From contig JAYKJE010000021.1 in assembly GCA_035285805.1 (NCBI GenBank), positions 156,956 to 220,955 of the forward strand: a stretch of 64,000 bases of DNA, given 5' to 3'. The translations under genes and the position numbers were made by a program. The notes beneath the pieces are model-generated. The model searched no databases. It had not been told where the DNA came from and saw nothing but the letters and a program-made list of their open reading frames with translations. This DNA is from a bacterium (GTDB taxonomy: Bacteria; Cyanobacteriota; Sericytochromatia; S15B-MN24; UBA4093). This document shows positions 30,725-61,766 of the stretch, piece by piece. Within the stretch, counting starts at the first letter, position 1. Each line of letters begins with the position of its first letter.

Positions 30725-32212
30725 TTGTTCCGCATCCCTCGTATCCTGTCCACGGGCTTGCTCGTCTCGCTCCTGTTCGCCGCACAGGCTCCCGCGCTGG
30801 GCGTCCCGCAGGATCTGACGATCCTGCATACCAATGACACGCACGATCACCTGTTACCTTTCGATACACGGCATGGCCGGGATCTCGGCGGCATCGCGCG
30901 CCGGGCGACCCTGATCCGTCGCATCCGTGCCGAGGCGACCCGCTCGCTGGTGCTCGATGCGGGGGATACGTTCCAGGGAACGCCGATCTTCACCTTTTTC
31001 GAGGGGGAGGCCGACACGCTCACGATGGACATGGCCGGGTACGATGCGAGCACCGTCGGCAACCACGACCTCGACAACGGACTTCCCAATCTCCAGAAGC
31101 AGCTGGCCGGGCACCACTTCCGCATGATCTGCTCCAACCTGGTTGACCAGGTGTCAGGCGAGCCCATCTTCGAACCGTCCCATGTCTTCGAGCGCGATGG
31201 CCTCAAGATCGGTGTGTTCGGGATCATGGGCGAGGATGCCCTGGAGGCCGTGGCCCGCAAGAACCGCCCCACCATCCGGTACCTCGATCCGGTCGAGGTG
31301 GCGCGTGAGCAGGTGCGTGACCTCCGGTCGCGGGTCGATCTCGTCGTCATGCTCTCGCACTCGGGCTTCGAGCAAGATCTGGACCTGGCCTCCCGGGTCG
31401 AGGGCATCCACCTGATCCTGGGGGGGCACTCCCACACCCGGGTCGATGAGCCGCGTCCCGTCCGGTGTGGTGCCTGGACGACCTACGTCGCGCAGGATTT
31501 CCAGTGGGGTGAACTGCTGGGACGGATCGATCTCACGGTCGACGAGGGCCGGATCACCGCGTTACGAGGACGTCTGCTGCCAGTCGATGCCTCGATCCCG
31601 GCCGACCGGTCCTTGCAGGACGTGGTCAACCTGTACGACAGCCAGATCCGCACGCGGATGGCCGAGATCGTGGCTCAGGCTCCCGCCGGGCTGGCCTCCG
31701 ACGACAAGTACGCCCGGGATTGCGAGCTCGGCAACTGGACGGCGGATGTCATCCGCGGGAAGACCGGGGCCGAGATCGGCATCATGAATGCGGGCGGCCT
31801 GCGGGCTCCTCTCCTGCCCGGTCCGGTGTCGGTCGGCACGCTGTACAGCATCTTCCCGTTCGACAATGCCCTCGTGACGGTCTCTCTGCCGGGCAAGACC
31901 TTGCAGGCGCTGTGCGATGCGAATGCTTCCGATCCGGCGCGACTGGGAGCCCTCCAGTTCTCGAACCTGACGTTCCGGGCGTCGGGTGGTCGGGCCGTGG
32001 ACGTGAGGGTCGGTGACAGACCGCTGGATGCCGGACGGGACTACCGGGTGGGCACCATCGATTACCTGGCTGACGGGAACGACGGGTATCGTCTGTTCAA
32101 GGACGGGAAGGATGCCCGGGCGATGGGGGTGCTTCTCCGGGACGCCGTGCTGGAGGCCGCGCGCCACCAGAAGGTGCTGCGTTCGCCCGGAACGGGGCGG
32201 ATCCGCGGCTGA
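30725..32212 (+). CDS. 5'-nucleotidase / UDP-sugar hydrolase family metallophosphoesterase, secreted
   Basis: TTG start preceded by GGAGGTG. Signal peptide FRIPRILSTGLLVSLLFAAQAPALG. Metallophosphatase motifs (ILHTNDTHDHL, GDTFQG, GNHDLDNG) and a C-terminal 5'-nucleotidase domain. The upstream part of the ORF track entry overlaps the convergent 29744-30622 gene. Confidence 0.8.
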   Translation: MFRIPRILSTGLLVSLLFAAQAPALGVPQDLTILHTNDTHDHLLPFDTRHGRDLGGIARRATLIRRIRAEATRSLVLDAGDTFQGTPIFTFFEGEADTLTMDMAGYDASTVGNHDLDNGLPNLQKQLAGHHFRMICSNLVDQVSGEPIFEPSHVFERDGLKIGVFGIMGEDALEAVARKNRPTIRYLDPVEVAREQVRDLRSRVDLVVMLSHSGFEQDLDLASRVEGIHLILGGHSHTRVDEPRPVRCGAWTTYVAQDFQWGELLGRIDLTVDEGRITALRGRLLPVDASIPADRSLQDVVNLYDSQIRTRMAEIVAQAPAGLASDDKYARDCELGNWTADVIRGKTGAEIGIMNAGGLRAPLLPGPVSVGTLYSIFPFDNALVTVSLPGKTLQALCDANASDPARLGALQFSNLTFRASGGRAVDVRVGDRPLDAGRDYRVGTIDYLADGNDGYRLFKDGKDARAMGVLLRDAVLEAARHQKVLRSPGTGRIRG

Positions 32213-51749: not shown

Positions 51750-52862
51750 TTGAAGGTCGCGATCATCCACGACTGGCTGACCACGCTGGGTGGCTCGGAA
51801 CGCGTGGTCTGGGCCCTTCACGAGATGTTCCCCGGGGCGCCGGTGTTCACGAGCGTCCATCGACGTGGGTTGCTCCCGCGCCCGTTCGAGGAACTGGACG
51901 TCCGGACCTCGTTCTTGCAGCGGCTCCCGGGATCCACGCGACTCTATCCGCGCCTGTTGCCGCTGATGCCTCTGGCCTTCGAGCAGTTCGATCTCTCCGA
52001 GTTCGACCTGGTGATCTCTTCCAGCCATGCCTGCGCCAAGGGTGTCATCACGCGCCCCGACCAGGTCCACGTCAGCTATGTCCACGCCCCCATGCGCTAT
52101 GCCTGGGATCTCACGCACGCCTACCAGCGAAGCCTGCCAGCCCCCCTCCGGCCCGCGGCGGCGATGCTGCTCAGCGGCCTGCGCCAGTGGGACGTACTCA
52201 GCGCCAACCGGGTCGATGCCTTCGTGGCCAACAGTCGCGAGGTGGCCGGGCGCATCCGCAAGCATTACCGTCGCGAGGCGACCGTGGTGCATCCCCCCGT
52301 CGACGTCGACCGCTTCGAGGTCCTGCCCGCATCGCACGTCGGCGACCACCTGGTGGTGCTTTCCCGGCTGGTCCCTTACAAGCGCGTGGATATCTGCATC
52401 GAGGCGGCCAACCGCACGGGCCGCCGTCTCAGGGTCATCGGCGACGGGCCGCTCTATCGCGACCTCCGGGCCCAGGCCGGACCCACCGTCACCTTCCTGG
52501 GCAACCTGCCGGACGAGGCCGTTGCCCGGGAGCTGGCCGGGGCCTCGGCGCTGCTGTTCGCGGCCTTCGAGGATTTCGGGATCGTGCCCGTCGAGGCGAT
52601 GGCGTGCGGGCGTCCCGTGATCGCCCTCGGGCATGGTGGGGTCCGGGATACCGTCCTGGACGGAGTGACGGGCACGTGGTTCGACGAGCCCCGGCTCGAG
52701 AGTCTCGTCGCCGCGCTGGAACGTCATGACCGCTTCGAGTGGGATCCCGCGCAGATCCGGACGCATGCCGAGCGATTTTCCCCGGCGGCCTTCCGGCGGG
52801 GCATGCAGGCCGTGATCGATGGGGCGCTGGCACGGGAGGTGGGCGAGGTGACCCTTGTCTGA
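51750..52862 (+). CDS. glycosyltransferase family 4
   Basis: MKVAIIHDWL N-terminus. C-terminal EDFGIVPVEAMACGRPVIA motif. Confidence 0.8.
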   Translation: MKVAIIHDWLTTLGGSERVVWALHEMFPGAPVFTSVHRRGLLPRPFEELDVRTSFLQRLPGSTRLYPRLLPLMPLAFEQFDLSEFDLVISSSHACAKGVITRPDQVHVSYVHAPMRYAWDLTHAYQRSLPAPLRPAAAMLLSGLRQWDVLSANRVDAFVANSREVAGRIRKHYRREATVVHPPVDVDRFEVLPASHVGDHLVVLSRLVPYKRVDICIEAANRTGRRLRVIGDGPLYRDLRAQAGPTVTFLGNLPDEAVARELAGASALLFAAFEDFGIVPVEAMACGRPVIALGHGGVRDTVLDGVTGTWFDEPRLESLVAALERHDRFEWDPAQIRTHAERFSPAAFRRGMQAVIDGALAREVGEVTLV

Positions 52863-54384
52863 ACCCGTGCTCCAGATCCCGCTCATCGACGATTCCTCCG
52901 CCTCGCGGGTGTCTCGCTTCGACTGGTTGCGGCGGCACGTCTTCACGGTCGGGCGTCCCCTCGTCGTCCTCGCCGACTGGCTGGTCGTGTTCAGCGTCTT
53001 CCAGCTCGTTTACCAGGTGCGATTCGTGTGGAAGGCGTGGGCTGCCGTCGAACAGGCCCCTCCCGTCGGTCCTTATCAGGTGGCCACGGCGGTGGTTGCG
53101 ACGGTGCTCATCGGTGTGCTGGCCGTGCTCGGCCTGTACCGGATCCGGCGCCTCGCCTCCCGTTTCGATGATACCGTTATCCTCGTCACGGGCCTCACCC
53201 TGGGCGCCTTGCTGGCGCTCGGCCTGGGCTTCTTCTACCGCGGTTTCAGCTACTCCCGTCTGGTCTTCGTGACGAGTCTCGGGGCCAGCTTCCTGGCACT
53301 CTGGATCGGTCACCTCGGGTTGCGGTGGCTCCAGGACCGGCTTCATGCCCGGGGCTGGGGAACCCTCAACGTGGTCATCGTGGGCTGCAACTCCCTCGGC
53401 AACCTGATGGCCGAGCGATTTCGCCGTGCTCCTCAGATGGGGTACCGGGTCGTGGGCTTCGTGCCCGCTCCGGGTGAGTGGATCGAGGGTGATTCCTGGC
53501 TCACGACGATCCGGACCGGAGAGCTCCGGGAGACGCCACGCGAGGTCTGTGGACCGTTCCTGGGGGACTTCGATCGGCTCCCGGAGATCCTGAGCTGGAT
53601 CGCGCTCGACATGCTGGTCGTGGCGCGTCCCGGAGCCAGCCTGTCCTCGCTGTTCGAGACGATCCTGGCCTCGGGGGTCGGCCCGGACGTGACCATCCGC
53701 ATCGTGCCGGATCTGCTGGAACTGATGACGGCGAAGATCCGGATGGTCGAACTCGACGGAGTCCCCACGCTCGAACTGGGCGAGGTGCCCCTCCGACGCT
53801 GGACCAACCGCTTCCTCAAGCGGGCCATGGACATCGTGCTCTCGGCCATGGGCCTGCTCGGAACCTTGCCCGTGATGCTGGTGGCGGCCGTGCTGGTCAA
53901 GCTCTCCAGTCCTGGACCCGTCTTCTATCGTCAGGAACGCATGGGCCGCGACGGTCGCCTGTTCAACATCTACAAGTTCCGGTCCATGCGCGTCGATGCC
54001 GAGGCCTCCACGGGGCCCGTCTGGGCGACTCCCGGTGATGCACGCGTCACTCCCGTGGGGCAGTTCCTCCGGCGAACCAGCATCGACGAGCTTCCCCAGC
54101 TCTGGAACGTCCTCGTGGGGGACATGTCCCTCGTGGGGCCGCGCCCGGAGCGTCCGCACTTCATCGAGCAGTTCCGCCAGCAAGTGCCCAAGTACATGGA
54201 CCGGCATCTCGTGCGCAGCGGCCTGACGGGCTGGGCCCAGGCCAACGGGCTGCGGGGTGAAGAGGGGACGATCGAGGAGCGGACGCGGTACGACATCTAC
54301 TACATCGAGAACTGGTCGCTGCTCTTCGATCTGCGGATCATCTTCAAGACGGCGCTCGAGGTTCTCGGACACCGGGCATACTGA
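52855..54384 (+). CDS. undecaprenyl-phosphate hexose-1-phosphate transferase (WbaP/polyprenyl glycosylphosphotransferase family)
   Basis: N-terminal TM helices plus a conserved C-terminal sugar transferase domain ([22 protein letters not shown]...[24 protein letters not shown]). Confidence 0.9.
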
Positions 54385-54416
54385 GGCACGGACCTCTGGA
54401 ACGGAGAACGGAGCGC

Positions 54417-55415
54417 ATGGCGAAGGGCAAGATCCTGGTGGTAGGAGGGGCGGGCTACATCGGCTCGCACGCCGTGAAGGCACTGGACGCGCGGGGATAT
54501 GACCTCGTGGTCCTCGATGATCTCTCGACCGGCTTCCGGGACGCCGTCGTGGCCGGGACCTTCGTCGAGGGCGACCTCGGCGATCGCCCGACGCTCGACC
54601 GTCTGTTCACGTCGCATGCCATCGAGGCGGTCATGCACTTCGCGGCCTTCGCCTACGTGGGTGAGAGCGTCCAGCAGCCCGGCAAGTATTACCGGAACAA
54701 CGTCGCGGCCACGCTCACGTTGCTCGAGGCGATGCGCGACCACGGGATCCGGAACTTCATCTTCTCGTCCACCTGTGCGACGTATGGCATCCCGCAGCAG
54801 GTCCCGATCCCCGAAACGCATCCGCAGTGGCCCATCAACCCGTACGGCTGGACCAAGCTGATGGTCGAGCGGATGCTGGCCGACTTCGACCGGGCCCACG
54901 GTCTTCGCTACGTCGCCTTCCGGTATTTCAACGCGGCCGGTGCGGATCCGGACGGTTTCCTCGGGGAACGCCACGATCCCGAGACGCATCTGATCCCGCT
55001 CGTGCTCCGGGCGGCGGACGGGGGTGAACCGCTCAAGGTGTTCGGGGACGACTACCCCACGCCGGATGGCACCTGCATCCGCGACTACATCCACGTCTCG
55101 GATCTCGCCGATGCTCACGTGCTCGGCCTCGAACGCCTGCTGGCCGGGGGAGAGAGCACGGTCTACAACCTGGGCAACGGTCAGGGGTTCTCCGTCAAGG
55201 AGGTCATCGCGGCCGCGGAGCGGGTGACCGGGCGGCCGGTCCCGCATGCGTTCGCCCCGCGCCGGGAAGGCGATCCGCCTGCCCTGGTCGGCTCGGCCGG
55301 GCGGGCCCGCGAGGAGCTCGGCTGGCAGCCTCGCTTCGCGGACCTCGAGACGATGATCGCGACGGCCCACCGCTTTCACCAGCGGCGTGTCCCGATGGGA
55401 GGACATCATGGGTAA
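54417..55415 (+). CDS. galE: UDP-glucose 4-epimerase
   Basis: VVGGAGYIGSH, YxxxK (YGWTK) and full-length GalE-like sequence. Confidence 0.9.
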   Translation: MAKGKILVVGGAGYIGSHAVKALDARGYDLVVLDDLSTGFRDAVVAGTFVEGDLGDRPTLDRLFTSHAIEAVMHFAAFAYVGESVQQPGKYYRNNVAATLTLLEAMRDHGIRNFIFSSTCATYGIPQQVPIPETHPQWPINPYGWTKLMVERMLADFDRAHGLRYVAFRYFNAAGADPDGFLGERHDPETHLIPLVLRAADGGEPLKVFGDDYPTPDGTCIRDYIHVSDLADAHVLGLERLLAGGESTVYNLGNGQGFSVKEVIAAAERVTGRPVPHAFAPRREGDPPALVGSAGRAREELGWQPRFADLETMIATAHRFHQRRVPMGGHHG

Positions 55416-56769
55416 GTACTTCGGCACCGACGGCATCCGGGGCCTCGCCAACCATGAGCTGCAGCCCGAACTGGCCTTCCGGCTGGGTCGCGCCGTCGCG
55501 GACGTGCTGGTCGGCGAGTCCAGCGGGCGCCCGGTCTTCTTCATCGGTCGGGACACCCGTCGCTCGGGCTCCATGCTCGAAGCTGCCCTCGCCGCCGGAC
55601 TGGCCTCGGCCGGGGTCGATGTCGAGTTGCTGGGCGTCGTGCCCACGCCGGCGGTCGCATGGCTGGTCGCCCGGCACGGGGCCGCGGCAGGGGCCATGAT
55701 CTCGGCCTCGCACAACCCCGCTCCCGACAACGGCATCAAGCTCTTCAGCGCTTCCGGTCACAAGCTGCCTGACGCCGTCGAGGCCCGGATCGAGGCGCTC
55801 CTCGATGCCGCCCTCGATACGTTGCCCCGACCCACGGGGGAAGGCGTCGGCGTCGTCACCGCGCGCGAGGATCGTGTCGAGACCTACGTCCAGCACCTGC
55901 TCACCCAGGCAGGTTCCAGGTTCGAGGGCAAGCGCGTCGTGCTGGATGTCGGTCACGGGGCTGCCACGGCCCTGGCGCCGCGGGTCCTGCGCGTGCTGGG
56001 GGCCGAGGTGACGGTGCTCCACGACGCTCCTGATGGAGACAACATCAACCGTGGGTGTGGCTCGACCCACCTGGAGGTGTTGCAGCAGGCGGTCCTCGAG
56101 GGATCCTACGACCTGGGGATCGCCTTCGACGGGGATGCCGATCGGATGCTCGCCGTGGACGAACGCGGGCGCATCGTGGATGGCGATCGCCTCCTGTTGA
56201 TCGCGCTCAGGCACGGGCTCGAGACGGGGCGCTACCCGATGCCTCGCGTGGTTTCCACGGTGATGAGCAACCTCGGGTTCGAGGAGGCCGTCCGGAATCT
56301 CGGAGGCGAACTGGTGCGGACCCCGGTCGGCGATCGGTACGTTCTCGAGGCCATGCGCGAGCAGGGGATCCTGCTCGGGGGCGAGCAGAGCGGCCACGTG
56401 ATCTTCCTGGATGCCAATACCACGGGTGACGGGCTGCTCTCGGCGGTCCGGCTCCTCGCAGCCGTGGTGGCGGCAGGTAACCGGCTCTCTGAACTGGCGG
56501 ACACGATGGTCGATTTTCCGCAGATTCTCCGGAACGTGCGGGTGCGCTCGACGGCCGGCTGGCAGGATCACGCCGTCATCCGGGAGGCGATCGCCGTCGC
56601 CACCTCCGAGCTGGAGGGGGTCGGTAGGGTGCTGGTCCGGGCTTCCGGCACGGAACCGCTCATTCGCATCATGGTCGAGGCGCGGGACGCGACGCTCGTG
56701 GAGTCGACGGTCACCCGCCTGGCCGACGTCATCACGGCCGCTCTGGAGGCCGTCGAACCCGTCGCCTAG
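55408..56769 (+). CDS. glmM: phosphoglucosamine mutase
   Basis: MGKYFGTDGIRG N-terminus and active-site serine loop. GGGAGGA ribosome-binding site. Overlaps the galE 3' end by 8 nt. Confidence 0.9.
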   Translation: MGKYFGTDGIRGLANHELQPELAFRLGRAVADVLVGESSGRPVFFIGRDTRRSGSMLEAALAAGLASAGVDVELLGVVPTPAVAWLVARHGAAAGAMISASHNPAPDNGIKLFSASGHKLPDAVEARIEALLDAALDTLPRPTGEGVGVVTAREDRVETYVQHLLTQAGSRFEGKRVVLDVGHGAATALAPRVLRVLGAEVTVLHDAPDGDNINRGCGSTHLEVLQQAVLEGSYDLGIAFDGDADRMLAVDERGRIVDGDRLLLIALRHGLETGRYPMPRVVSTVMSNLGFEEAVRNLGGELVRTPVGDRYVLEAMREQGILLGGEQSGHVIFLDANTTGDGLLSAVRLLAAVVAAGNRLSELADTMVDFPQILRNVRVRSTAGWQDHAVIREAIAVATSELEGVGRVLVRASGTEPLIRIMVEARDATLVESTVTRLADVITAALEAVEPVA

Positions 56770-57827
56770 CGCTCGGGCCGGATGAATCCCTGGAGGCGCT
56801 TCCGGAAGTCCTCCAGGGAGAGGCTCTCGATGCCACCGGACGCTTCGCGCGTGCGTACGGGGCTGGACTTTCCGTTCGTCGTGCTGCCCGTGAGCCCCGT
56901 GTTTCCCCATGGATTGCGGAAGATCACGCGGTTGCCCTCGATCTTGAGGACGAGCACCATGTGCTCCGAGTGCGTCTTTTCGCCCTGGCCGCGCCAGTCG
57001 AGCATGACGGGCGCTTCTCCGTGGCGCGCCAGTGTCTCGCGCAACCCCTTCATCAGGCCATCGATGCCCCAGTTCGTGAAGGGCACCCGCCCGAGCAGAG
57101 GGACGACTTCCACGGCTTCATGCGGCTTGCCTGTCAGAGCCGTGGCGGCACGGGCCACCTGGATGCTCAGCAGACCGCCCGGGAAGGGCGTCCATGGGCC
57201 AAAACCGTGGCGGTCCGCGCCGTTGCGGTAGTCGACGACGCCGTTGGCCAGGTCCATCATGGCCGCCTCGAACAACCGGCTTGCGGCCGTCCGGCTCGAG
57301 CGATCGTCCTGGAGGCTGTCCTCCACCCGTACCAGGTCTTTCCCACCCGCCGTCTTGACCCGGCCTGAAGGGCTCGCCAGGCCCGTGACGAGACGGACGT
57401 ATTCGGCCGGATCCCGTCTGGCCAGGCTGTACTCGAGGGTGGTGACCGTGCAGGTGCCCCGGTCTCCCTGCTGGATCAGCCCCGGATCGGCGACCTGCTG
57501 CACCAGGTCGCTCATCAGACGGCCCCGGTCGAGACCGGGCGCGAGGGGCGCCGTGGCCAGCCTCGCAAGTTGCTCGAGCAGCGAGGGCTTGCCGCCGGGA
57601 TCCCGCTGGCCGTCGAGGGCGCCGGAGCGGTCGAGGCGTTCGAGGGCCACGGTCCCTGGCCAGTCGAGCACGTGTTTCACGGTGGCCAGCCGCTGGCTGC
57701 GGATGCCGCGGGTGTAGACGTCCTGCGTGCTGCTCTCCCGAGCCGCCACGGGGTTCGTGGACGGGCCCGGTGGTGGGCCCTTGCGCTGGCGGGGTTCGAG
57801 TGGATTCGGGGCGATCGCGAGACGCAT
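56766..57827 (-). CDS. hypothetical protein with papain-like (clan CA) cysteine-peptidase signature
   Basis: Candidate catalytic Cys in IQQGDRGTCTV (Gln six residues upstream, like the papain oxyanion Gln). Candidate His/Asn in HSEHMVLV...VIFRNPWGN (compare papain H...NSWG). GGAGAGGTG ribosome-binding site before the ATG at 57827. Confidence 0.45.
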   Translation of the reverse strand: MRLAIAPNPLEPRQRKGPPPGPSTNPVAARESSTQDVYTRGIRSQRLATVKHVLDWPGTVALERLDRSGALDGQRDPGGKPSLLEQLARLATAPLAPGLDRGRLMSDLVQQVADPGLIQQGDRGTCTVTTLEYSLARRDPAEYVRLVTGLASPSGRVKTAGGKDLVRVEDSLQDDRSSRTAASRLFEAAMMDLANGVVDYRNGADRHGFGPWTPFPGGLLSIQVARAATALTGKPHEAVEVVPLLGRVPFTNWGIDGLMKGLRETLARHGEAPVMLDWRGQGEKTHSEHMVLVLKIEGNRVIFRNPWGNTGLTGSTTNGKSSPVRTREASGGIESLSLEDFRKRLQGFIRPER

Positions 57828-57964
57828 GCGGACACCTCTCCTTCGAGGGATTCTTCCTCCGTTGTCGGTGCACCGAGGGAGTGCTGACGTGAAGAAGCTG
57901 TTAACTTCTGGGGTCGGGGCCTCGGATAGCCCTGGCGGCCCTGCGGGTATGAACAAGTTGAGGA

Positions 57965-58834
57965 GTGGACCTCATGGTGCGGAACATCGACCCCTCTCGA
58001 GGGCGCCAGCCCTTGCCCGTCACCGGACAGGCCGTCGGCCCCGTGCCAGTCGCCCCTTCCGGTGCGCGCGCGAAGCCACGGCCGGCCAGACGTTCCTGGA
58101 TGCAGGAACTGCTTTTCGAGGCCGGGCTTGCCCGGGGTGAGGACCCATCAGCCACGGAATCCGGACCGGGAGAACGTGCCGGACGCGCGCTCCAGCCCTC
58201 CCGCGAGGCGTTGCTGGCTCTGACCTCCGAACCGGGTCGGGTCATCGCTTCCGTCGAAGAGTATCGCCGTCTCTTGCACGCGCGGTTCGATCCGGCCGTG
58301 CACCGCGCCATCGAATTGCTCGCATCCGAGCCCGTCATGTCGGCGGCCGTCCGGGTCTGGCGACCCGGGCACGGTCAGGACAACCGGCGCATCGGGGAAT
58401 CCCTCGTGACGTATCTGGGACAGGCCCTCGGGGAAGCGTACGGCTTCGATCCCGTGCCCGTCGTGTTCGATGACCAGCGTGCGGCAGGCTTCCGGGGCCT
58501 CTACGACCGACGCTTCGATCGCGTGTATCTGCCAAACCGGCTGACAGCCGGCTCGCTCCACGACTTCCTTGACGTCGTGACCCACGAGCAGATGCACGCC
58601 TTCCAGGATCGCCTGATCGGTCGTCTCCAGTTGCTGAAGGGAGAACCGCTCCCGACTCTCGACCGGATGCTCGCCACCTACTGGAAGCACGAGGAAGGGA
58701 AGTACCGGGCCCTGATGGCCAGCGGTTCGGACATGAGTGCGGAGACTCGTGAGAAGTACCGCAACATCGGACAGGAATATCACGCGATCGCCACGGGCCT
58801 GGCGATCGCGGGGGCACTGGATCCCCGAGAGTGA
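57965..58834 (+). CDS. hypothetical protein with HExxH (zincin-like) motif
   Basis: VVTHEQMHAFQD motif. No signal peptide. Translationally coupled to the downstream gene (GTGATGA overlap). Confidence 0.45.
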   Translation: MDLMVRNIDPSRGRQPLPVTGQAVGPVPVAPSGARAKPRPARRSWMQELLFEAGLARGEDPSATESGPGERAGRALQPSREALLALTSEPGRVIASVEEYRRLLHARFDPAVHRAIELLASEPVMSAAVRVWRPGHGQDNRRIGESLVTYLGQALGEAYGFDPVPVVFDDQRAAGFRGLYDRRFDRVYLPNRLTAGSLHDFLDVVTHEQMHAFQDRLIGRLQLLKGEPLPTLDRMLATYWKHEEGKYRALMASGSDMSAETREKYRNIGQEYHAIATGLAIAGALDPRE

Positions 58835-60093
58835 TGAACCGGGGCTACCTGGCAGGAATCGCCGTGAACGTCGTCGTGCTGGGTTTCGTTCTTTCCGGTC
58901 CCGCCCGGGCAGACGAGGTTTCTCCGGGTTTGCCGTTCCCCGCTTCCCCCGGTTATCCATCGGCCTCCGGTGCGTCGGCCCCATCCACGTCCCGCGGGAC
59001 CGCTCCCGCCGTGCTGGCGGTCGACTCGCGAATCGAGCTGGTGCAGCAGCCCCGTCCCGACCCGTCGTGGGTTCTTCCGGAGCTGGCCGGGTTGCTCCCG
59101 CAGGCCTGGATGGGGCGTGTTTCGCGACTGGGACTGACTCTCGAGCAGGATCTTCTGCCGGGCGTGCGAGGCGTGATCGCCGCCCGGGCCGTCCAGGACC
59201 TCGAAGAACCGCTCTTGAACCCCGACTGGCATGACACGGCCCGGAACCGCCTGGAGGCCCTCCGGCGGGGTGGTTCCGACCTCCGTCCCCTGTATCTCCC
59301 CGAACTGCACCGGGCGATGATCGTGTGGCGGGACGTCGAGCGGGGTGGAGAAATCTCCGTCGGGCAGATGGTCGTGCCCATGGACTTCGAGGACGCCTGG
59401 GCAGCCCATCCATCCCCCGCGCTTGCGCCTCGCTTCACGCCCCTCACCACCTGGCTCTCGGGACGGTCGACAAGCCTGTATGAACCCTCCATCGGCAGCC
59501 GGTTCCGGGATGTCGGGGCCAGAATGGCCGTCGATACGGGGCCCTTCCCGTGGTCGATCGGCCTGTTCAACGGCAGCGGTCCCAACCGCCTGGACGATGG
59601 TCCCGAGAAGCACGTCTTTGCCCGCCTCGACTGGCGCGCACGCCCCACCGACCGGATCGGGGCAAGTCTGTTCTGGGGAACCGAGACCCTGCATCCGTCC
59701 GGATTCGACGTGCCCGGAGTCCGGCTCGACCGAAAGCGCTGGAACGTCCATGCCGAGTTCGAGACCGGGGGACTCACCTGGCGCGGTGTCTGGGGGCGGG
59801 ACGACCGGGGCGACGGTCAGGCCTTGCGAGAAGGCGGATGTTTCGAGGTCGCGCAGCCTGCGGGAGACGGCGGACGCTGGTATGCGAGAGGCAGCTGGTT
59901 CACGGACCCGAAGGCGATGTCCGACGTCGATTACCGGACCCGCGAGGCCCTGGTGGGTTTTTCCCGGGCCTGGACTCCCGGCTGGACCTGGCGCAGCGAG
60001 GCGTGTTACCGGTGGGAAGATGCCGGGACCACCCACACGGAAGATCTCCGGTGGCTCTCGGCTCTCGATCTGCGCTGGACCATCGAACCGTGA
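58831..60093 (+). CDS. hypothetical secreted protein, possibly an outer-membrane beta-barrel
   Basis: Signal peptide (AGIAVNVVVLGFVLSGPARA). C-terminal alternating aromatic/hydrophilic beta-strand-like pattern ending ...LSALDLRWTIEP. Confidence 0.4.
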   Translation: MMNRGYLAGIAVNVVVLGFVLSGPARADEVSPGLPFPASPGYPSASGASAPSTSRGTAPAVLAVDSRIELVQQPRPDPSWVLPELAGLLPQAWMGRVSRLGLTLEQDLLPGVRGVIAARAVQDLEEPLLNPDWHDTARNRLEALRRGGSDLRPLYLPELHRAMIVWRDVERGGEISVGQMVVPMDFEDAWAAHPSPALAPRFTPLTTWLSGRSTSLYEPSIGSRFRDVGARMAVDTGPFPWSIGLFNGSGPNRLDDGPEKHVFARLDWRARPTDRIGASLFWGTETLHPSGFDVPGVRLDRKRWNVHAEFETGGLTWRGVWGRDDRGDGQALREGGCFEVAQPAGDGGRWYARGSWFTDPKAMSDVDYRTREALVGFSRAWTPGWTWRSEACYRWEDAGTTHTEDLRWLSALDLRWTIEP

Positions 60094-60100
60094 GGTTGCC

Positions 60101-60691
60101 ATGATACCCATCCCTCGACATGCACCCCTCGTCCTGGCCTCGGCGTCTCCGCGCCGCGCCCAGTTGCTCGAGCAGGCCGGGATCCCTTTCCAGGTCGACG
60201 TGAGTGCCATCGAGGAGATCCTCGATCCGACGTGGTCTCCCGCCGAGGCCGTGGTGGAACTCGCGAGGCAGAAGGCGCGTGACGTGGCCGTCCGGCATCT
60301 CGGTGGGGAGGTCGTGCTCGCCGCAGATACCGTCGTCGTCGTCGAGGGCCGCATTCATGGAAAGCCACGGGATGAGGCCGACGCGCGCCACATGCTGGCG
60401 GCCCTGTCGGATCGCTGGCACGAGGTCTACACGGGCTGGTGTCTCGTCCTCCCGGAGGGTGAGCGCGTCGGTGTCGAGCGCACGGATGTGCACTTCGCCC
60501 CGCTCGACGAGGAGACCATTGCACGCTACGTGGCGACCGGTGAGCCGCTCGACAAGGCCGGGGCCTATGCCATCCAGGGGCGGGGCAGCCTGTTCGTGGA
60601 CGCCATCCGCGGAGACTACCACAACGTCGTCGGCTTGCCCGTCCACGCCATCGGGCGAGCCTTGCTTCAATCGGGCTTTCTCGTGATATAA
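60101..60691 (+). CDS. maf: Maf-like nucleoside triphosphate pyrophosphatase
   Basis: [11 protein letters not shown]-terminal motif. 196 aa. Directly upstream of mreBCD, the conserved arrangement. Confidence 0.85.
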
Positions 60692-60731: not shown

Positions 60732-61766
60732 GTGTTCAACCAGCTGATCAGCCGCTTCTCGCGCGATATCGGGATCGATCTCGGTACCGCGAATACCCTC
60801 GTGTACATGCGGGGCAAGGGCATCGTGCTGCGGGAACCCTCCGTCGTCGCGCGTCACGCTCACGGCGGTCGCGGGGGGGCCGTGGCGGTCGGTGAAGACG
60901 CGAAGATGATGATCGGCAGGACCCCGGGCGATATCGAGGCCGTGCGCCCGCTCAAGGATGGCGTCATCGCGGACATCGATTGCGCCGAGCACATGCTCAA
61001 GCACTTCATCGAGAAGGTGCACGCCAAGTCGGGTATCTGGCGCCCGTACATGGTCATCGGGATCCCTTCGGGTGTCACCGAGGTCGAAAAGCGTGCCGTC
61101 GAGAATGCTGCCCAGCAGGCGGGAGCCCGCAACACGCCATTCCTGATCCCGGAGCCGATGGCCGCCGCGATCGGCGCCGACCTGCCCGTCGAGGAGCCCA
61201 CCGGCTCGATGATCGTCGATATCGGTGGAGGGACCACCGAGGTGGCCGTCATCTCCCTCGGTGGGATCGTCGTCGCCCGGTCGGTTCGCGTCGCAGGTGA
61301 CGAGTTCACTGACGCGATCATCCAGTACATGCGCAAGGTGCACAACCTCAGCATCGGTGAGCGCACGGGCGAGGACATCAAGATCAAGCTCGGTTCCGCC
61401 TATCCGCGCATCGATGACCAGGAGATGGAAGTTCGCGGACTCAACCTGCTCTCGGGACTTCCCAGGACCGTCCGGGTCAACGGCGCGGAGATCCGCGAGG
61501 CACTTCAGGAGCCCGTCCAGCAGATCGTCGATGCCGTCCGGGACACCCTGGAAAGGACGCCTCCCGAACTCGCGGCCGACATCATCGACCGCGGCATCGT
61601 GCTGGCTGGCGGCGGTGCGCTTCTCCAGGGACTCGACGAACTGATCGCGCACGATACCGAGATCTCGGTCCACGTCGCGGATGATCCCCTCTCGTGTGTC
61701 GCCCTCGGAACGGGGAAGATCGTCGAAAACCCCAGGCTGCACCACGCGTTGCGGAACTCTCGCTAG
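60732..61766 (+). CDS. mreB: rod shape-determining protein MreB
   Basis: Actin-fold phosphate motifs ([29 protein letters not shown]). Full-length MreB-like. Confidence 0.95.

Follow-up and report, generated by a model that had tools for sequence, protein, structure and literature searches.

Three lineage-specific genes between glmM and maf-mreBCD in a Sericytochromatia genome: two candidate peptidases and a remote relative of Porin_O_P porins

What are the three genes that lie between glmM and the maf-mreBCD genes of a bacterium of the class Sericytochromatia (Cyanobacteriota), and do they belong together? The genes, here called A, B and C, are found in a stretch of 64,000 nucleotides (contig JAYKJE010000021.1 of assembly GCA_035285805.1, positions 156,956 to 220,955), which we refer to as the window; coordinates are those of the window unless they follow a locus name. 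A first-pass annotation of the same DNA had taken the three for a unit wedged between two conserved clusters, in which two proteases and an outer-membrane channel would serve effector or toxin export or form a protease/regulator pair. We consider it fairly probable that they are instead three unrelated, lineage-specific genes with independent functions, A specifying a cytoplasmic thiol peptidase, B a cytoplasmic zinc peptidase and C an outer-membrane porin, and that no single module exists.

The window has a GC content of ~68%, and its list of open reading frames (ORFs) places three ORFs between glmM and maf. Gene A (56766..57827, minus strand) shows coding periodicity and encodes 353 residues from an ATG start, the length given at first pass. 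The sequence AAGGAG lies ~8 nucleotides 5' of this ATG and the public annotation of A is also 353 residues long, making an alternative longer TTG start at 57956 unlikely. For gene B the mechanical ORF (57965..58834, plus strand) yields 289 residues from a GTG, as originally annotated, whereas an ATG 9 nucleotides downstream, preceded by GAGGAG, is probably the start because all homologues begin with 'MVR'; this leaves 286 residues (57974..58834), although residue numbers of B given below follow the 289-residue version. Similarly, the mechanical ORF of gene C (58831..60093, 420 residues from a GTG) shortens to 419 residues from the ATG at 58834, in agreement with the public annotation (58834..60093, plus strand). 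The stop codon of B and the start codon of C overlap as TGATG, with one base in common, as had been noted. The 146-bp intergenic region between the divergent genes A and B (57828..57973) carries both ribosome-binding sites, the GAGGAG being 8-13 nucleotides upstream of the B ATG and the AAGGAG lying on the minus strand, and presumably both promoters; a promoter scan gave no match to the sigma-70 consensus, and a terminator scan gave terminator-like matches only at chance level. In A, B and C, GC content by codon position follows the order GC1 > GC2 << GC3, the same as in glmM, mreB and mreC. Furthermore, the region shows no GC or codon deviation, with a GC content of 0.64-0.71 compared to 0.64-0.72 in neighbouring genes and a GC3 of 0.78-0.85 that is close to the 0.83-0.86 of the flanks.

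Gene A had been proposed to encode a papain-like protein with Cys, His and Asn catalytic signatures. The protein has no significant Pfam or NCBIfam match, and a word-indexed search of 5.8 billion proteins returned only 17 relatives, the sources of which are metagenome-assembled genomes labelled Sericytochromatia, 'bacterium', or with probably misnamed cyanobacterial genera. All proposed motifs are present at the expected codons, QQGDRGTC containing Q120 and C126, HSEH containing H289 and RNPWGN containing N305, and in the alignment of the 17 homologues Q120, C126, H289 and N305-P306-W307-G308 are invariant. The first two of these residues are encoded within 57450..57470 on the minus strand (Gln120, 57468-57470, predicted oxyanion hole; Cys126, 57450-57452, predicted nucleophile and the sole cysteine of A) and the others within 56904..56963 (His289, 56961-56963; Asn305-Pro-Trp-Gly308, 56904-56915). 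Their order and spacing are those of clan CA peptidases, in which the catalytic residues follow one another as Gln-Cys-His-Asn (PMC4631099). The possibility that the motifs of A, or the HExxH motif of B described below, are coincidental is set aside by this invariance across homologues, which places them above chance.

An AlphaFold2 model of A, built on the homologue alignment, was confident (pLDDT 86.2, pTM 0.84) and comprised a disordered segment (residues 1-25), a helical N-terminal region (residues 26-113) and then the catalytic domain. In this model helix 126-138 begins with C126, H289 is part of strand 288-297 and N305 comes directly after strand 300-304, the arrangement of a papain fold with the Cys at a helix N-terminus and the His and Asn on the beta subdomain. 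Consistent with this arrangement, the best Foldseek matches in the PDB were the protease cores of calpain-1, -3, -8, -9 and -5 (E 1e-5 to 1e-3, probability 1.0), followed by the cysteine peptidase toxin StbD/CdiA-CT (8ssk), a primitive phytochelatin synthase, staphopains and papain-family enzymes; the best 50 matches were mostly clan-CA cysteine peptidases and also included the papain-fold proteins phytochelatin synthase and CtaG. Staphopain and papain-family enzymes, like the calpains, were matched with a probability near 1.0. The model, the fold matches and the invariant residues thus bear out the papain-like fold that had been guessed, and A looks like a divergent clan-CA (papain/calpain-fold) cysteine peptidase. 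No hydrophobic N-terminal segment, and so no signal peptide, was found in A. A cell-wall hydrolase of the NlpC/P60 type, also considered, was rejected, since A lacks a signal peptide and its fold matches are calpain and papain rather than NlpC/P60. By inference, A would belong to the papain/calpain clan and work as a soluble cysteine endopeptidase, probably in the cytoplasm, with Cys126 as nucleophile, His289 as general base, Asn305 orienting the His and Gln120 forming the oxyanion hole, and the helical extension at its N-terminus may serve for gating or for targeting.

A is nearest in fold to calpain cores, yet membership of family C2 could not be demonstrated. With the calpain core (MEROPS C2, clan CA), its best structural match, it has in common the Gln-Cys-His-Asn order, a Gln-to-Cys spacing of 6 and an Asn within an R-N-P-W-G motif, and the missing signal peptide fits a cytoplasmic location as in most calpains. 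The His-to-Asn spacing of A, in contrast, is 16, a papain-like value against about 24 in calpain, and A has an additional N-terminal helical region. A resembles many bacterial calpain homologues in having a single domain. Calcium-binding sites of the calpain core are absent from many bacterial homologues. Rare bacterial calpain homologues were described by Rawlings 2015 (PMC4631099), and all calpain homologues carry Peptidase_C2 by definition (PMC4631099); neither A nor its 16 homologues matched Peptidase_C2 even at E <= 10. Moreover, neither the full A-family profile nor a sub-profile of the His/Asn region reached calpain or papain chains in the PDB, and the matches that did appear were due to chance, as with the solute-binding protein 2wok, which has 'RNPW' in common with A. 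With papain (C1), staphopain (C47) and the StbD/CdiA-CT toxin, A shares the papain fold, the Cys at the helix N-terminus, the His and Asn on the beta subdomain and N-x-W-G. However, the structural matches to C1 and C47 were weaker than those to calpain (E about 3e-3 and above), A has neither the signal peptide nor the prodomain of the C1 papain family, and it lacks the delivery domain and the immunity partner of polymorphic toxins.

The product of gene B contains the HEQMH motif (58583..58597, plus strand; His207, Glu208, His211) from which a zincin had been predicted. We found 8 relatives of B in the protein database and 13 B loci in GTDB species genomes, assigned to Candidatus Sericytochromatia, Candidatus Tanganyikabacteria or unclassified. 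Across 18 B sequences the HExxH motif is conserved throughout, in support of the zincin prediction, with H207, E208, H211, Q214, E243, E271 and H273 among the invariant residues. Glu243 (58691..58693, plus strand), located 32 residues past His211 and invariant in all 18 covering sequences, is the most likely candidate for the third zinc ligand and lies within helix 231-252 of the AlphaFold2 model; E271 and H273 are alternative candidate ligands. Poor at the Pro/Arg-rich N-terminus, the model reached a pLDDT of 85-92 over residues 90-289; this part is largely helical, has two short strands before the HExxH helix and shows a zincin fold around the active-site helix.

Known families did not claim B. 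Its model returned no Foldseek match, Pfam and NCBIfam gave none, and a PDB profile search with the B family was uninformative. Five of nine B members gave weak, sub-threshold matches to PF18818 (MPTase-PolyVal, the zincin-like metallopeptidase of polyvalent proteins), the best of them, at E 0.0094, remaining below the Pfam threshold, and the window protein itself had no match, so that B could not be placed in a PF18818 or SprT-like family. When set against minimal zincins and gluzincins (jannalysin, abylysin, selecase, SprT/Spartan, Wss1, ArdC with MPTase-PolyVal PF18818, CapP and IrrE), B stands apart by the lack of a family-level sequence match and of a Foldseek match, and it also differs by its large helical N-terminal region, its disordered Pro-rich N-terminus and the extra invariant residues Q214, E271 and H273. 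No signal peptide or transmembrane segment was detected in B, which consists of the Pro/Arg-rich disordered N-terminus and a helical core. We read B as a cytoplasmic, gluzincin-like predicted metallopeptidase. It would act as a zinc endopeptidase in the cytoplasm, in which Glu208 serves as catalytic base and the metal is bound by His207, His211 and probably Glu243.

C begins with a predicted Sec signal peptide (58834..58911, plus strand; MNRGYLAGIAVNVVVLGFVLSGPARA), with cleavage predicted after ARA and DE following; by inspection of hydrophobicity, this is the only transmembrane-like stretch in A, B or C, and C homologues of other clades also begin with signal-peptide-like segments. The word-indexed search gave only two non-self relatives of C, whereas a profile of three C sequences retrieved 24 proteins when 1.84 billion representatives were searched exhaustively with HMMER. 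Of 26 aligned members of the C family, Porin_O_P is matched by 11 and BBP2, an OmpL-like porin family, by 4, and SLH domains occur in 2. The proteins P0041, P0042, P0043 and P0045, which the C profile retrieves at E 6.5e-6 to 3.7e-5, match Porin_O_P at E 2.5e-21 to 1.9e-12, and the closest non-self relative of C, P0029 (E 5e-69), reaches the Porin_O_P threshold with 21.0 versus 20.9 bits. Direct alignment of the C-clade profile to a Porin_O_P-positive profile gave an hhalign probability of 99.7% (E 2.6e-26, 263 columns, residues 92-395), to be read with the fact that the Porin_O_P-positive targets had been chosen through an earlier match to the C profile; the alignment far exceeds the motif originally matched, G-L-F-N-G-S-G-P-N-R-L-D-D-G-P-E-K. 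C is thus homologous, at the level of profiles, to bona fide Porin_O_P members.

In comparison with the phosphate-selective porins OprO/OprP (PF07396), C has a predicted signal peptide, aligns over ~300 residues at the profile level (the same 99.7%) and shares the motif G-x-F-N-G-x-G-x-N-x-x-D-D-N-x-x-K-D. It differs from them in that it carries a Pro/Ser-rich linker after the signal peptide, ends in ...RWTIEP instead of an aromatic residue and heads the maf-mreBCD operon rather than lying in a pho regulon context; moreover, no PDB porin was found by sequence, the extended C-family profile included. C is best described, from these profile comparisons, as a remote outer-membrane porin of the Porin_O_P superfamily, and it would be exported by Sec and serve in the outer membrane as a beta-barrel diffusion channel of the Porin_O_P type. 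Of the first-pass description of C, the signal peptide is borne out by inspection, and a barrel is supported by the homology to Porin_O_P instead of by the C-terminal strand periodicity that had been cited for it. The accompanying statement that none of the three products resembles a housekeeping protein is correct only in the sense that none has a Pfam or NCBIfam match: A, B and C have known folds and chemistry and nevertheless form sequence families outside the coverage of these databases.

We compared gene neighbourhoods in relatives, and these separate A from B and C. In L001 and L014 (B 76% identical) the order is that of the window, namely (glmM), A on the minus strand, B, C, maf, mreB, mreC, mreD, PBP2 and minC, and in L026 glmM, A on the minus strand and the start of B are followed by the contig end. 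In L007, L015 and L016 the order is glmM, an M20 amidohydrolase gene on the minus strand, B, a gene for a tetratricopeptide repeat (TPR) protein, C, maf, radC and mreB, with mreC following in L015 and L016; the identity is 42-47% for B and 32-39% for C in these three loci. The partial contig L009 has glmM, M20 on the minus strand, B and the TPR gene and stops before any C. L017-L019 have M20 on the minus strand, B, C, maf, mreB and mreC, without the TPR gene and without glmM, and with a B-C spacer of 150-350 nucleotides. In L008 an opposite-strand AAA_16/cyclase gene separates the TPR gene and C, and in L020-L025 B occurs without a nearby C, its neighbours being an epimerase gene, a glucosamine-6-P isomerase-like gene, a cyclase gene and an MCP gene. 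As B and C occupy the same position across the class, we conclude that they have been inherited vertically: B-C-maf-mreBCD is an inherited syntenic arrangement across Candidatus Sericytochromatia and no insertion, and the location of B and C at the head of maf-mreBCD is a class-specific feature. The earlier view that A, B and C interrupt two conserved clusters was for this reason misleading. A takes the place of M20 in L014, L026 and the window alone and is no conserved partner of B and C. That homologues might be scattered singly, which the first-pass annotation had named as a result that would speak against a module, therefore holds for A, found together with B and C only in L014 and L026. 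B and C do co-localise in several clades, where they head the vertically inherited maf-mreBCD block.

The slot divergent from B is of interest in itself. In most Sericytochromatia an M20 amidohydrolase of the TIGR01891 subfamily occupies it, as at L007:3771-4997, L009:2152-3378, L015:1320-2537 and L016:7455-8672 and in L017-L019, and at 56766-57827 of the window one peptidase gene, A, stands in for another, M20, in the same position and orientation. A gene of ~358 codons on the minus strand divergent from B in L020, L021 and L025 was examined as a possible A-like gene and proved to encode an NAD-dependent epimerase. The A homologues outside the close relatives have surroundings of their own. 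Those in L002:4249-7626, L005:4383-7831 and L011:3397-6829 (minus strand) are divergent from a conserved three-gene operon for a signal-peptide protein of 250-256 residues, a 96-residue protein and a 779-residue UshA-like metallophosphoesterase, with MltA adjoining on the opposite flank in both L005 and L011, and those in L012 and L013 are in still other contexts. The 250-, 96- and 779-residue products near the A homologues of L002 and L005 were rejected as counterparts of B and C, BLASTP revealing no similarity and the largest being UshA-like. The product of 30773-32053 (plus strand) of the window, far from A, is 25-27% identical to the N-terminal half of this 779-residue protein (tblastn E 1e-25 to 3e-29).

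Other genes recur beside B. The TPR protein that follows B, of ~390 residues and without a signal peptide, is encoded at L007:6062-7234, L008:1084-2241, L009:4451-5500, L015:3617-4783 and L016:9757-10926; it stands between B and C in L007, L008, L015 and L016 and is missing from the window. The combination of a zincin, TPR repeats and a beta-barrel is reminiscent of BepA, but the predicted compartments do not match. The gene that separates the TPR gene from the C homologue in L008 (2238-6311, minus strand) encodes 1357 residues with AAA_16 and guanylate-cyclase domains, and a similar cyclase-AAA-TPR gene is located downstream of B in L020 and L025. In L023 (4865-8592) B is immediately followed by two genes, one of RecA fold and one of IMS type (Y-family polymerase-like), that together resemble an imuA/imuB mutagenesis cassette, a context of note given that SprT, Wss1, ArdC and IrrE are among the fold neighbours of B.

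How well do independent functions account for these data? Several results weigh against this reading. A has no sequence-level match to any curated peptidase family and no detectable sequence similarity to the calpain core, and its TM-scores to calpain cores are only 0.35-0.38, or 0.30-0.38 when the cores of all five calpains are taken together, with high root-mean-square deviation; C itself remains below the Porin_O_P threshold, has no Pfam match at E <= 1 and, in a crude amphipathic-moment test of strand periodicity, fell within ~1 standard deviation of shuffled sequences, which is not significant. Furthermore, the recurrent pairing of B with a divergent peptidase gene, M20 or A, is left unexplained, and B and C, translationally coupled in the window, have kept their adjacency across clades despite a C identity of 32-39%. 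B and C may thus be functionally linked. One form of such a link, which we regard as unlikely, is that B, C and the TPR protein of relatives constitute an envelope unit tied to the mre operon, for instance a split, BepA-like zincin and TPR pair controlling the assembly or turnover of C, with A unrelated. The B-C neighbourhood kept in several Sericytochromatia clades, the TGATG overlap in the window and the TPR gene that separates B from C in L007, L008 and L015-L016 and follows B in L009 are consistent with this, as is the match of the TPR repeats to the BepA TPR model, although that model is one among many matched and the TPR matches are generic. However, B and the TPR protein lack signal peptides and should not meet a periplasmic barrel precursor, B is found without C in L020-L025, an opposite-strand gene intervenes between the TPR protein and C in L008, and simple inheritance could explain the conserved order. 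A bolder version, to which we give rather little credence, makes B, the TPR protein and C a Sericytochromatia-specific envelope-control unit co-expressed with maf-mreBCD-PBP2-minC, a split cytoplasm-side analogue of BepA-like zincin and TPR proteases that would couple outer-membrane protein supply to wall growth, and separately makes A a bacterial offshoot from deep within the calpain lineage, one that current sequence models fail to detect; if true, such an offshoot would bear on the unsettled origin of calpains.

Other readings concern the individual proteins or revive the export module. B might be a regulatory zincin activated by DNA or stress, of the kind of SprT, Wss1, ArdC, IrrE or CapP, cleaving a repressor or DNA-protein crosslinks and adjacent to C only incidentally; the PF18818 (ArdC-type zincin) matches in five of nine members and the imuA/imuB-like neighbours in L023 point in this direction, but the former are sub-threshold (best E 0.0094), the latter occur at one locus only and no DNA-binding domain was detected in B, and we think this improbable too. 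That A is instead a non-protease papain-fold enzyme (for example a transferase, an amidase or a deamidase, comparable to phytochelatin synthase or CtaG) or an inactive pseudo-peptidase seems to us quite unlikely: phytochelatin synthase Alr0975 and the amide-forming CtaG are among its fold matches (E about 2e-3 to 7e-3) and no curated peptidase family is matched by sequence, but the complete Gln-Cys-His-Asn set is invariant, together with the N-[SP]-W-G motif that typifies C1 and C2 peptidases (compare PMC4631099), and the best and most numerous fold matches are true endopeptidases. Least credible, and very improbable in our view, is the horizontally acquired module amid housekeeping clusters, in which the cell would secrete A and B as protease effectors or toxins and C would be their export channel in the outer membrane. 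Two predicted peptidases do adjoin an outer-membrane barrel, the antibacterial toxin StbD/CdiA-CT (8ssk) is a structural neighbour of A, and A and B have disordered N-termini, as have some effectors. Yet A is linked to B and C only in the closest relatives, the class-wide position of B and C indicates vertical inheritance, C is akin to diffusion porins and not to TpsB/Omp85, TolC or secretins, A and B lack signal peptides and delivery domains, GC and GC3 are unremarkable, and A is convergent with glmM, with overlapping stop codons, and has no immunity-like or small gene beside it. When the three window proteins were scanned against PADLOC and PHROGs, no significant match emerged. A horizontally acquired island, a polymorphic toxin with its immunity gene and a defence system were each considered and rejected. 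The export proposal is refuted for A and unproven for B and C, and the notion of a protease/regulator pair likewise finds no support in these data as a functional synthesis. Three independent genes remain the reading that we prefer.

The flanking genes give B and C a likely transcriptional context. Downstream of C follow maf (60101..60691, plus strand), mreB (60732..61766, plus strand), mreC, mreD, PBP2 and minC. As the maf ATG lies 7 nucleotides past the C stop, B-C-maf-mreBCD is probably one transcription unit; B and C would be co-transcribed as the first genes of a maf-mreBCD-PBP2-minC cell-shape operon inherited within Sericytochromatia, and in the window's clade their translation would be coupled as well. 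Bacillus subtilis has a maf-(radC)-mreBCD-minC cell-shape cluster, and the order maf, mreB, mreC, mreD, PBP2, minC downstream of C is alike, whereas in Sericytochromatia it is preceded by the lineage-specific B and C. On the other side, glmM (55387..56769, plus strand), whose identical copy in L010 showed PGM_PMM domains I-IV, is of the phosphoglucosamine mutase family. It runs convergently towards A, and the stop codons of the two overlap by 4 nucleotides (56766-56769), leaving no space for a terminator between them. Reading of the translations alone suggests that the ORFs upstream of glmM (51750-55415) encode a glycosyltransferase-like protein (51750-52862), a membrane protein resembling sugar transferases (52855-54384) and a galE-like epimerase (54417-55415); the whole neighbourhood concerns the envelope and cell wall.

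The main value of these results lies in annotation, with no sign of a new mechanism. Three hypothetical proteins of the uncultured and little-studied Sericytochromatia gain fold-level labels, as a clan-CA cysteine peptidase, a gluzincin-like metallopeptidase and a Porin_O_P-like outer-membrane protein, and A and B represent peptidase families outside Pfam and NCBIfam coverage. With the A family, the non-photosynthetic sister group of cyanobacteria gains a calpain-like protease core, which bears somewhat on the debated bacterial origin of calpains (PMC4631099).

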